From an uncultured Pseudomonadota bacterium (lineage in GTDB: Bacteria > Myxococcota_A > Bradymonadia > Bradymonadales > GCA-2716585), in the NCBI GenBank assembly GCA_937890335.1, contig CALBXO010000741.1:1-51251 (forward strand): 51,251 bases of DNA, read 5' to 3'. Position numbers and translations under genes: made by a program. The notes under the pieces were generated by a model. That model was not told the origin of the DNA. It was given only the letters and a program-made list of their open reading frames with translations, and made no database searches. Numbering within the stretch: the first letter of the stretch is position 1; each line of letters begins with the position of its first letter. Of this stretch, positions 5,459 through 7,684 are shown in pieces.

Positions 5459-7684
5459 CTACTCGTGCCCGTGCTCCGCGTGCGAGTGACCCTCGCCCGA
5501 CGGCCGCTCGCCGCTGGCGGGTGCGGGCGTTTTGGTCTTGCCCATGGGCGCCGTGATTTTGGCCCACTCGGCGCGCACCCGATCCACCTCTTCTTTGTAC
5601 TTCTTGGCGTCCTTTCCCATGCCCTTGAAGTTGTGCTCCAGGGCCACCTCGGGGTCGAACTTACCTTTGATGAGCGAGCGCACCTCCCGCAGGATCCCCT
5701 CTCGGTGGTACGGGTGGATCTTGTTGCCCGCGTCCGAGATGCGCTGTTCGTCGGCCAGGTTCTCGGAGATGTGGGAGCCACCCAGCTGCGCCTTGCCGCC
5801 AGGGCGCAGGAAGGTCGCCTTGGCGAGATCGTATTGGCCGCGGACCGCAAAGCAGTCGTCGGGCACGTCAGGTCGGTTCGCGAAACGGTAGAACTTCCGG
5901 CTCCCCGACGAGTCAAAGTCGTAGGGATTGACCGCCGCGTCCAGGTCGGTCGTGGCCTTGGCGTGCTCCGCCGTGGCGGCGGCCAGCTTCTTCTGGGCGT
6001 CCTTCTTCTGCTCCTCCGTGGACTTCTTGTCCTTGAGAACCTTCTTCTGGGCGGCGATCTCCGTCTTCCACTTCTTCTGCTCTTTCTTGAAGTGGGCCTG
6101 GCACGCCGTGAAGCGCCCCGCGTATTTTTTCTGCAGCTTCGGGTTCCCCTTGAGGATGTTCCCCGCCTTGGCGTCGTCCTCCTGCGCCTCGGAGTTCTCC
6201 GCGTACTCGTCCGGCAGCCCGATCATATGCAGCCACTCGTGCGCCAGCGTGAACTGGTCACCGGTGGGGGTCTTCTTGTCTTTCTTGTAGCCCGCCACGT
6301 GGTCCGAGCCGTCGGTGCCACCGAGGTTGAACTCGGCGCTCTGACCGTCCCCGGCGACAAACGCGCGGTGGTCCTCCCCGCGTCCCCGCTGGACCATATT
6401 GATGGTGAAGTGCTCCCCGGAGGTCACCGGCGTGACCTTGGCCTTCATCGTCGCCAGCGCCGTGGACCACCGCTTGGCCTCTTTGGCCAGCAGGTAGTCA
6501 GGTGGGTCCGTGAGTCGGAACGGGCGCACACTCTTCTTGCCAGTGGACCACACCCTGTCGAGCTGGTCTTGCCACAGTTTCTGGACCTCCTTCTTGGTGG
6601 ACGAGGAGGTTTTTCGTTTCTGCTTCTTGGCCTTGTCGCTCTGCTGCCAGACGTATTTGACCTTGGTCTCCACCGTGACCGTGGCGTCCGGGATCCCAGG
6701 TTTGAACGCGATGCCCTGCGACGCGCCGCCCTTGTTCATCTTCACCGGGTCCTTGGTCAGCGCGGCGGCGGAGGCGTAGGAGTCCAGCCAGCCCTTCTCG
6801 ATCTCCTTGAAGGCATCCACGACGTCTTCCGCCGATTTCTTGAGCGCCTTGCCCCGGTCGGTGCGCCACTTCTCGTAGTCCTTGTCGAGGTTCTTTACCG
6901 AATCGAGGTCTTCACAGCCCGTAATCTTGCCGGCGTAGACCTGTGCCTCGGCCTTGGCCACCAAAACCACCGCGGTGAGCGTCACGTCCAGCGCTGCCTT
7001 GTGCTTGGGGTGCGCGTCCTTCTCGAGGTCTTTGACGGCGTCCGCAGCCCAGGCTCCGTCCTGAATCTTGGTCAAGAGGTCGGACTTCGGACCCAGAAGA
7101 TCGATGTACCGGGTCACCGCGTCGTAGGCGTCCACGGCGGCGTCGACCACAGGCTTGCCGAACACTGCGTCGGCCGCGGAGCGCAACAGATTGTGCTGAA
7201 CCGCTCGCTGCACGCCACCGCTGGCGCTACCGCCGGCGTACTTCTCACCCACCTCGGGGACCGCTTCGCCGCGCGCCACGCGCTGGGCGACGCTGTCAGC
7301 CTCGACCTCGTACTGGTCGCCCACCTCGCCGACGCCGCCCTTGAGCTGCACACCTTTTCGCTGCTGAAGTACATGCGTGACCTCCTCGGCCACGACGTCC
7401 TTGGCTGGGTTTGCCGTGTTGAAGGCGACCTGGCCCTGCGAAGCGTACGCCTGGGCGCCCATCGCCTCGGTGGCCTCCTTCGCGGCACCACCGGTGTGGG
7501 CCGCGATATCGCCGAGGTCGGTGGCGAACGCCTTCTCCATCTCCGGCAGGAAAGGCAGCGGCCCCCCCGTCCCGGACAACCCGGCTTCCGCCTGCTCGTG
7601 AACGGCCTCCGCCGACTCCACGGCGCATTTGGGACACTCACACTCGGCAGTCCCCTCACACCGCCTTTGTACCGTCAGCGCCAT
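5459..7684 (-). CDS. DUF4157 (PF13699-like) domain protein with a C-terminal zinc-metallopeptidase motif; putative toxin or cargo
   Basis: Residues about 40-110 (GPLPFLPEMEKAFATDLGDIAAHTGGAAKEATEAMGAQAYASQGQVAFN...VVAEEVTHVLQQ) match the DUF4157 pattern. The usual HExxH reads EEVTH here. A second, intact motif HEWLHMIGLPDEY lies at nt 6203-6241. There is also a Lys-rich charged segment and a His-rich C-terminus (GEGHSHAEHGHE). No signal peptide is evident. Confidence 0.8.
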   Translation of the reverse strand: MALTVQRRCEGTAECECPKCAVESAEAVHEQAEAGLSGTGGPLPFLPEMEKAFATDLGDIAAHTGGAAKEATEAMGAQAYASQGQVAFNTANPAKDVVAEEVTHVLQQRKGVQLKGGVGEVGDQYEVEADSVAQRVARGEAVPEVGEKYAGGSASGGVQRAVQHNLLRSAADAVFGKPVVDAAVDAYDAVTRYIDLLGPKSDLLTKIQDGAWAADAVKDLEKDAHPKHKAALDVTLTAVVLVAKAEAQVYAGKITGCEDLDSVKNLDKDYEKWRTDRGKALKKSAEDVVDAFKEIEKGWLDSYASAAALTKDPVKMNKGGASQGIAFKPGIPDATVTVETKVKYVWQQSDKAKKQKRKTSSSTKKEVQKLWQDQLDRVWSTGKKSVRPFRLTDPPDYLLAKEAKRWSTALATMKAKVTPVTSGEHFTINMVQRGRGEDHRAFVAGDGQSAEFNLGGTDGSDHVAGYKKDKKTPTGDQFTLAHEWLHMIGLPDEYAENSEAQEDDAKAGNILKGNPKLQKKYAGRFTACQAHFKKEQKKWKTEIAAQKKVLKDKKSTEEQKKDAQKKLAAATAEHAKATTDLDAAVNPYDFDSSGSRKFYRFANRPDVPDDCFAVRGQYDLAKATFLRPGGKAQLGGSHISENLADEQRISDAGNKIHPYHREGILREVRSLIKGKFDPEVALEHNFKGMGKDAKKYKEEVDRVRAEWAKITAPMGKTKTPAPASGERPSGEGHSHAEHGHE

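Follow-up and report, generated by a model that had tools for sequence, protein, structure and literature searches.

The 51,251-nucleotide stretch considered here, contig CALBXO010000741.1 of GenBank assembly GCA_937890335.1 (from an uncultured bacterium assigned to Myxococcota_A; the whole stretch is called the window below), carries a gene for a 741-amino-acid protein that joins an N-terminal DUF4157 (eCIS_core) domain to a C-terminal domain predicted to be a zinc metallopeptidase. The gene belongs to a run of four abutting genes in the same orientation, which encode in this order a CxxCxxCC protein, a tetratricopeptide repeat (TPR) protein, the 741-aa protein and a leucine-rich repeat (LRR) protein, and which probably form one operon (Table 1). 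New to the DUF4157 class are the natural loss of the first zinc-ligand His, a peptidase domain not described before, an LRR partner kept in most related loci, and an 'orphan' position together with an ATPase of its own.

The gene and its degenerate DUF4157 motif

The reading frame of the 741-aa protein begins at its first start codon, with GAGG 6-12 nt before the start, and the N-terminus MALTVQ is common to the protein and its homologue P0002. The GC content at third codon positions (0.85) is as for real genes of the window, and an identical protein occurs in four other aquatic metagenome assemblies that were assembled independently. The first-pass annotation, made from the letters of the sequence, had called the product a DUF4157 protein. 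Indeed, PF13699 (eCIS_core, formerly DUF4157) matches residues 46-111 with an E-value of 2.9e-14 and a score of 53.4 bits, the gathering cutoff being 22; the alignment spans model positions 7-78 of 79. A conserved extension, GVQLKGGVGxxGDxYExxAD, follows the Pfam match and reaches approximately residue 137 (alignments A1, A3 and A6).

The same annotation had noted that the first zinc-ligand His of this domain appears to be replaced by Glu, which our comparison confirmed. Within VVAEEVTHVLQQ (aa 97-108, nt 7361-7396), the protein has AEEVTHVLQQ in place of the family AHExxHVxQQ. The motif is thus real, but the range first given for it, nt 7373-7390, spans AEEVTH only (aa 99-104) and not the whole motif. 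Among the homologues retrieved, His occupies the first position in 68 of the 70 DUF4157 motifs. The two Glu-bearing motifs belong to the 741-aa protein and to its 74%-identical relative P0002, and the more distant full-length relatives (P0003-P0006, P0063, P0064 and P0066) have all kept His. A change from His to Glu requires two base substitutions. It is not a sequencing error, since the identical protein was recovered in the four further metagenome assemblies; moreover, the Glu codon is GAG in the 741-aa protein and GAA in P0002, so the residue was retained through a synonymous change.

The remainder of the DUF4157 signature is intact, with E101, H104, Q107/Q108, D123 and E126 falling in invariant columns of alignment A6. 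Between the 741-aa protein and P0002, the ratio of nonsynonymous to synonymous substitution rates (dN/dS) is ~0.27 in the DUF4157 domain and 0.11-0.14 in the peptidase core, values that are rough because dS is near saturation. Both domains are constrained, the peptidase core more tightly than the DUF4157 part. As its HExxH has degenerated to EExxH, the DUF4157 domain here is most likely non-catalytic, yet it is under purifying selection. Loss of the first metal ligand under such selection argues that the role of the domain is a non-catalytic one, in agreement with mutagenesis of Cgo1, a tube-lumen cargo of the injection system AlgoCIS. Cgo1 combines DUF4157 with a C-terminal domain bearing a second HExxH, and its inhibition of E. 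coli depends on neither HExxH motif (PMC8894135). The dispensability of the DUF4157 metal motif of Cgo1 for toxicity fits the natural loss of the motif in our protein.

Outside the two principal domains, the first 26 residues of the leader have a predicted local distance difference test score (pLDDT) below 50 in the full-length model. The highest 15-residue Kyte-Doolittle value in the first 60 residues is 0.53, and no hydrophobic segment is seen there, consistent with the previously noted absence of a Sec, Tat or lipoprotein signal. The Cys knuckle, Lys-rich block and His-rich tail were all found as first described. The Cys motif C-x5-C-x-C-P-K-C precedes DUF4157 in the 741-aa protein and P0002 and follows it in P0005 (aa 259-270) and P0006 (aa 255-266), as would a small mobile module that binds metal or forms disulfides; any such four-Cys motif was present in only 6 of 105 retrieved proteins. 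Between DUF4157 and the peptidase domain, the helical middle domain contains a conserved IDLLGPK motif at approximately residues 194-200, and D195-K200, W212 and H228 are invariant in alignment A1. Tails of the type (H-D/E)n, similar to that of the 741-aa protein, terminate most of the listed members of the long family, that is, of the relatives that share the long rather than the compact form of the C-terminal domain. One may speculate that this conserved His-rich tail handles metal or regulates the site.

A whole-protein phmmer search of the PDB gave no match at E<=10, and a full-length AlphaFold2 model built with 10 sequences was poor (pLDDT 64.6), its Foldseek matches being long-helix artefacts. 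A match of the helical domain to PaxB was insignificant (E 0.78) and was discarded.

The C-terminal domain and its zinc motif

HEWLH, in the C-terminal domain, is the sole HExxH of the 741-aa protein, and the coordinates first given for HEWLHMIGLPDEY are exact (Table 1). Read over residues 482-492 as HEWLHMIGLPD, it fits the extended consensus HExxHxxGxxH/D. In an alignment of 30 sequences that includes both long and compact forms (A4), W406, Q477, H482, E483, H486, D492, Y494 and G653 are invariant, and the Gly of the zinc motif is nearly so. As the first-pass annotation had proposed, this second motif lies in a genuine, strongly conserved domain with the hallmarks of a metallopeptidase.

When we searched with a profile of the region that follows DUF4157, it picked up cyanobacterial proteins (Microcoleus, Coleofasciculus) along with P0065, which carries the C-terminal domain without any DUF4157. 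HMMER, run exhaustively against 1.84 billion cluster representatives, returned just 43 proteins at E<=1e-3, 22 of them at E<=1e-30; the family is therefore rare. Its weaker matches are compact domains of ~220-250 aa situated behind LysM, DUF4157 or disordered leaders, and Haliangium ochraceum Hoch_1621 is one such compact relative. Because it occurs without DUF4157 in P0065, and in compact versions behind other leaders, the C-terminal domain is an independent module. Conversely, other carriers of a similar DUF4157 end in annexin, calpain, Transglut_prok, nuclease, Ntox21 or LysM C-termini. Nor is there any sign of duplication between the two modules, since hhalign aligned the DUF4157 profile with that of the C-terminal domain over only 17 columns around HExxH, with 34% probability.

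AlphaFold2 modelled residues 325-741 with confidence when supplied with the 30-sequence alignment (pLDDT 89.2, predicted TM-score 0.85; mbb0c36ae595e). In local numbering, the modelled elements are a strand (9-24), a helix (37-54), four strands (65-69, 86-95, 102-108 and 125-130) and a helix (155-163), the last being the predicted active-site helix with HEWLH; an insertion, a turn and a C-terminal helix follow. This order of elements fits the canonical order of metzincins. In the long family, an insertion of ~150-190 residues, which includes a helical hairpin, separates the zinc motif from the position of the Met-turn. The hairpin helices (524-551 and 557-585) are modelled with pLDDT > 90, and the Lys-rich block is a lineage-specific insertion in alignments A1, A3 and A4. 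Compact relatives have R-I-M-S-G-G ~25 residues past the Asp of the motif; in snapalysins, a methionine-containing turn lies about ten residues past the third ligand (PMC3890501). S650, which replaces Met in the subfamily of the 741-aa protein, aligns with the Met of the Met-turn, which is present in the compact relatives and in some distant members of the long family (RIMIWGN, RLMVSGN).

The consensus HExxHxxGxxD is the Asp variant found in the Met-zincin/Asp-zincin branch of clan MA, Asp-zincins being by definition without a Met-turn, whereas gluzincins take a distal Glu as ligand instead (PMC3890501). As the motif of the 741-aa protein is the Asp variant and the 30-sequence alignment shows no conserved distal Glu, the likeness to gluzincins seen in the first-pass annotation does not hold. 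Judging by the motif and by snapalysin, H482, H486 and D492 would bind the zinc, E483 would serve as general base and Y494 would lie near the metal.

Of known structures in the PDB, the best profile match is snapalysin (MEROPS M7; PDB 1c7k, 1kuh and 4hx3), with an E-value of 1.6 when the profile held 6 sequences and of 0.0055 (19.1 bits) when it held 30. The match covers ~65 residues and aligns the zinc motif with snapalysin HETGHVLGLPDHY. Both have HExxHxxGLPDxY, in which Asp is the third ligand and a Tyr follows, and both have strands before the active-site helix; R-I-M-S-G-G of the compact relatives also resembles the methionine-containing turn. Unlike the ~380-aa domain described here, however, snapalysin has 132 aa; further differences are the ~150 aa inserted here between the third ligand and the Met-turn position, and the replacement of Met by Ser.

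Other families fared less well. With the 30-sequence profile, the M64 IgA protease in the PDB matched at the level of the motif only (E 0.72); it shares the ...HEFGH..GLxDEY motif, but PF09471, like PF05547, gave no match to the 741-aa protein at E<=1, so that of the proposed M64 likeness the shared motif stands and the family relationship does not. PF13699 was the only family returned by a Pfam-A scan of the protein at E<=1. No Pfam peptidase family matches it, and the suggested similarity to Tox-MPTase domains (which we take to be entries PF15637-PF15641) likewise failed to appear. The M6-domain model TIGR03296 (NCBIfam) scored 19.9 bits, below its cutoff of 110.8. Compact relatives gave sub-threshold matches to Reprolysin_4 (at most 21.2 bits against 22), M43, M6, M64 and M10. 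All scores for adamalysin/reprolysin (M12B), M6 and M64 thus lie under the family cutoffs, and every sub-threshold family match of the 741-aa protein and its compact relatives is of metzincin type. Similarly, Foldseek ranks 1, 2, 3 and 5 went to the adamalysin/reprolysin catalytic domains of TACE, RVV-X and ADAMTS-5 (E 0.47-0.75), all non-significant and with TM-scores of 0.16-0.28. Its coiled-coil hairpin matches (AcrA, HlyD, BAR domains and tape measures) stem from the Lys-rich hairpin and were set aside.

The profile and Foldseek check that had been advised for this region therefore yielded a borderline match to snapalysin and an order of elements that fits metzincins, but nothing significant. 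Since no database match reaches significance, we leave the domain unclassified rather than assign it to M7, M6, M12 or M64. Its motif and model suggest a small new family related to the Asp-variant Met-zincins (snapalysin-like), and we predict it to be a previously unannotated metallopeptidase toxin domain.

The roles of the two modules might conceivably be reversed, with DUF4157 still a functional peptidase that uses Glu100 as a metal ligand and the HEWLH region a structural or metal-storing part, or a motif arisen by chance, as the first-pass annotation had allowed. Glu can ligate zinc in other enzymes, and DUF4157 keeps its residues E101, H104, D123 and E126. The His-rich tail hints at a part in handling metal, and a bare HExxH arose in 4.4% of shuffles of the 741-aa protein. 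The extended motif, in contrast, is expected 5e-7 times and is invariant in 30 relatives, and its region is a well-packed strand/helix domain (pLDDT 89) rather than one of low complexity. Furthermore, the C-terminal domain is the most constrained part of the protein and also exists without DUF4157, and toxicity of Cgo1 does not need the DUF4157 motif (PMC8894135). We consider such a reversal highly improbable.

The LRR partner, the ATPase and the neighbouring genes

Two features of the context, both absent from the first-pass annotation, proved the most informative: the LRR gene and a gene for an Afp15/Pvc15-like ATPase. The LRR gene abuts the stop codon of the 741-aa gene, although other assemblies have it annotated with a start 7 codons further on. 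The N-terminus of its product is hydrophobic and resembles an export signal (hydropathy 1.6-2.3). A homologous LRR gene is present in 9 of 11 distinct loci, both in Myxococcota and in cyanobacteria. It lies directly downstream in the P0002, P0004 and P0005 loci and in those of a Kofleriaceae metagenome-assembled genome (MAG), a Myxococcales MAG and a Leptolyngbyaceae cyanobacterium, overlapping the toxin gene by 4 nt in several loci, and a few genes off in the P0003 and P0077 loci; it was not found in the Segetibacter contig or the P0073 locus. In the Segetibacter MAG (L013, 7371-11360), two tandem DUF4157 genes, of which the second encodes a member of the family, stand among housekeeping genes with neither the LRR partner nor the ATPase nearby.

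Linkage across phyla is as expected of a toxin and its cognate inhibitor, and it suggests that the LRR protein is a candidate immunity protein. Polymorphic toxin/immunity pairs likewise recombine a variable C-terminal toxin module with different N-terminal trafficking modules, and they likewise have a small gene directly downstream, often overlapping by 4 nt, that co-varies with the toxin domain across phyla. Our candidate departs from such pairs in being an LRR protein of the ribonuclease-inhibitor type with an export signal. An exported partner would imply that the toxin acts in the cell envelope or periplasm. In the literature library that we searched, no paper joined DUF4157 with a metzincin or with LRR immunity.

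The ATPase is related to ATPases of operons for extracellular contractile injection systems (eCIS). Over residues 31-667 it shows 30-32% identity to eCIS-operon ATPases, its best matches in a plasmid collection. In local searches it matched the ATPase of an eCIS locus on Nostoc plasmid pn3 with E 7e-88 and, with E 3e-65, the product of a gene of Serratia marcescens pELP1.10 sited between the tape measure and Pvc16. The Nostoc ATPase gene adjoins baseplate, tail and 2074-aa DUF4157 genes. On that conjugative plasmid (Nostoc sp. UHCC 0926; L008, 7296-16683), the eCIS operon ends with genes for the 2074-aa DUF4157 protein, a 204-aa hypothetical protein and the ATPase, with XisH/XisI near. We tried the 251-aa protein encoded beside the ATPase in the window as a counterpart of the 204-aa protein and found the two not to be similar. 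Including the window, a homologous ATPase is encoded adjacently in six loci (the others being L001, L002, L005, L006 and L010).

Around the ATPase lies an accessory block (7770-15129) that comprises the TPR gene, two YkgJ-type CxxCxxCC genes (8820-9935 and 13121-13708), the gene of the 251-aa methyltransferase-like protein, a gene for a 145-aa protein (12687-13124) and one for an AAA_16 STAND-like NTPase (13705-15129). Rearranged versions of the block, with the CxxCxxCC and TPR genes, are found in loci L002 and L001. L001 is the more distant of the two, and there a single protein of 952 aa unites AAA_16 and TPR.

Conservation of AAA_16, TPR, AAA, CxxCxxCC and methyltransferase-like genes around the toxin gene in these two loci and the window would also suit an intracellular conflict or defence system, with the metallopeptidase as a non-exported effector of abortive infection or regulated cell death that the LRR protein keeps in check. 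The AAA domain does score against IetA/IteA models, and CIS-linked regulated cell death (CIS, contractile injection system) is known in Streptomyces. PADLOC, however, made no defence-system assignment and found no match for the protease, LRR, TPR, CxxCxxCC or AAA_16 proteins, and its matches to the ATPase reflect generic AAA similarity far under the cutoffs. In addition, the LRR proteins bear export signals and so would not meet a cytoplasmic protease, and the metallopeptidase-LRR pair occurs without other cassette genes in three loci (L011, L012 and L029). We therefore regard a conflict system as quite unlikely.

Table 1. Features of the 741-aa protein and of its gene neighbourhood (nucleotide positions refer to the window)
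Feature	Residues	Nucleotides	Strand	Remarks
Gene of the 741-aa protein	1-741	5459-7684	-	Putative DUF4157 (eCIS_core) effector with predicted C-terminal metallopeptidase domain; frame from the open reading frame list and translation
N-terminal leader	1-45	7550-7684	-	Polar; low-confidence model; contains the Cys knuckle
Cys knuckle C-x5-C-x-C-P-K-C	9-20	7625-7660	-
DUF4157/eCIS_core domain	46-111	7352-7549	-	PF13699 match
Degenerate zinc motif EEVTH	100-104	7373-7387	-	Family has HExxH
All-helical middle domain	156-306	6767-7219	-	Kept in the long family; secondary structure from the full-length model
Metallopeptidase N-subdomain	325-500	6185-6712	-	Strand, helix, four strands, active-site helix
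Zinc-binding consensus HEWLHMIGLPDEY	482-494	6203-6241	-	Invariant residues in 30/30 sequences of alignment A4
Helical hairpin	524-585	5930-6115	-	Part of the insertion separating the zinc motif from the Met-turn position
Lys-rich block	533-566	5987-6088	-	Hairpin extension, only in the 741-aa protein and P0002
Met-turn equivalent R-I-S650-D-A-G	648-653	5726-5743	-	C-terminal helix follows
His-rich C-terminal tail GEGHSHAEHGHE	730-741	5462-5497	-	Modelled as disordered
LRR gene		4745-5458	-	Downstream; 237 aa; ribonuclease-inhibitor type; PF13516 (LRR_6), E 3e-14; candidate immunity protein
TPR gene		7770-8819	-	Pfam
CxxCxxCC (YkgJ-type) gene		8820-9935	-	Pfam
Methyltransferase-like gene		9848-10603		251 aa; precedes the ATPase gene; weak PADLOC mad2 match
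Afp15/Pvc15-like AAA+ ATPase gene		10600-12666	+	~688 aa; divergent, 3 kb from the 741-aa gene

Elsewhere in the window, positions 17508-25752, 10 kb from the toxin gene, encode a bacterial alpha-2-macroglobulin (1940 aa) and, immediately after it, a penicillin-binding protein of the PBP1C type; together they make up a classical anti-protease/repair pair of the periplasm. A 491-aa protein (27205-28680) has a weak, sub-threshold match to M61 glycyl aminopeptidase and is a possible further metallopeptidase. A 1514-aa protein (39299-43843) bears 14 MopE-type putative metal-binding repeats (PF11617, E 6e-95), and its gene is followed by genes for large TIG-domain and Kelch-like proteins. At the left end of the window (1-250), all four contigs with the identical 741-aa protein (L025-L028) terminate within ~30 nt of the window's own end, 217-246 nt past a 356-aa gene, which suggests a repeat or another assembly breakpoint.

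Delivery and meaning

DUF4157, the eCIS core domain, stands N-terminal to diverse toxin domains (PMC8213781). It is found in about half of predicted eCIS toxins, and about half of these predicted toxins have no recognisable toxin domain (PMC11297309). Our modular reading of the 741-aa protein as a polymorphic-toxin-type effector, with a leader, DUF4157, a helical spacer and a C-terminal zinc metallopeptidase, agrees with these published DUF4157 effectors (PMC8213781, PMC11297309) and with the first-pass annotation in so far as a variable C-terminal toxin follows a leader. In common with eCIS-associated toxins (EATs) and Cgo1, the protein has the order of disordered N-terminus, DUF4157, linker and variable C-terminal toxin, and an AAA+ ATPase of the Afp15/Alg15 type is encoded nearby; the second HExxH shared with Cgo1 is a likeness of layout. 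In contrast to EATs, its gene has no CIS structural genes in view, its DUF4157 HExxH is naturally degenerate (2/70), its C-terminal domain belongs to an unclassified family, and a conserved exported LRR gene follows it. Many EATs lack obvious immunity genes (PMC8213781). Toxicity of one other DUF4157 cargo depends on its being sent to the periplasm (PMC12210884).

The first-pass annotation had assigned DUF4157 itself to packaging or recognition. Against this, one direct experiment showed that loading of AlgoCIS requires the disordered N-terminal region while DUF4157 is dispensable; the AAA+ protein Alg15 mediates this loading (bioRxiv 10.64898/2026.05.27.728243).

From the domains found, the states of their motifs, their conservation, the linkage of the genes and the topology of the model, we infer how the 741-aa protein may be delivered, act and be neutralised. 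The explanation that we hold to be narrowly probable is that it is an eCIS-associated, DUF4157-type modular effector with a C-terminal zinc metallopeptidase toxin, LRR immunity and ATPase-aided loading into a contractile injection system. The Afp15-like ATPase would recognise the leader, and the leader together with the DUF4157 part would direct the protein to an injection particle encoded elsewhere in the genome. The metallopeptidase domain, with zinc held by H482, H486 and D492 and with E483 as base, would then cleave a target in the envelope or periplasm, and the exported LRR protein would shield the producer and its kin.

Several points weigh against this explanation. The canonical Met of the Met-turn is lacking, with Ser in its place; the snapalysin profile match is borderline; and the confident C-terminal model retrieved no significant relative from the PDB or BFVD with Foldseek (best E 0.47). 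Glu100 might still bind metal, in which case DUF4157 may have kept its function, and instead of an inhibitor the exported LRR protein could be a subunit for targeting or another kind of partner. Finally, 88% of known eCIS toxins are encoded within ten genes of the operon (PMC11297309), whereas no sheath, tube, spike or baseplate gene was found by Pfam in the 51-kb window, which shows only 5.4 kb on one side of the 741-aa gene, and none lies within ~10 kb of any of the ~11 related loci examined. A tblastn search that set eCIS structural proteins of Serratia and Nostoc against the window and every locus gave no match either; its sensitivity across phyla is limited.

This absence of structural genes at the ~11 loci would be expected if the same toxin-immunity pair travelled by another route, be it type VI secretion, release by lysis, or a path that is peculiar to the cassette and depends on an ATPase, with DUF4157 as a general effector adaptor. 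An exported LRR partner fits an effector that acts in the periplasm, as is typical of the cell-wall toxins of type VI secretion systems. Moreover, DUF4157 has been reported in type VI effectors too (PMC11297309, PMC8894135). But VgrG, PAAR, Hcp and ClpV were not found in the window, and over nearly its full length the adjacent ATPase is like the Afp15/Pvc15 proteins of eCIS operons. Another route thus seems to us unlikely, and delivery by a contractile injection system remains our preferred explanation.

The trio of ATPase, DUF4157-metallopeptidase and exported LRR protein is seen in several Myxococcota loci, always apart from sheath, tube and baseplate genes. We tentatively propose, as a possibility that we ourselves find rather unlikely, that it constitutes a portable 'cargo island' with its own loader and antidote, which either supplies a distant injection system in trans or works without one. 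If so, the natural His-to-Glu variant would be evidence for a non-catalytic role of DUF4157, a domain that is the best genomic marker of injection-system toxins. The locus provides a rare, predicted metallopeptidase toxin domain with a confident model and a hypothesis for its catalytic residues, as well as a candidate LRR-type inhibitor of a metzincin-like enzyme that is conserved in two phyla. Furthermore, how cargo is chosen for loading is important if such particles are to be made into protein-delivery tools, and the pairing of this kind of cargo with a private Afp15-like ATPase, at a distance from structural genes, is relevant to that question.

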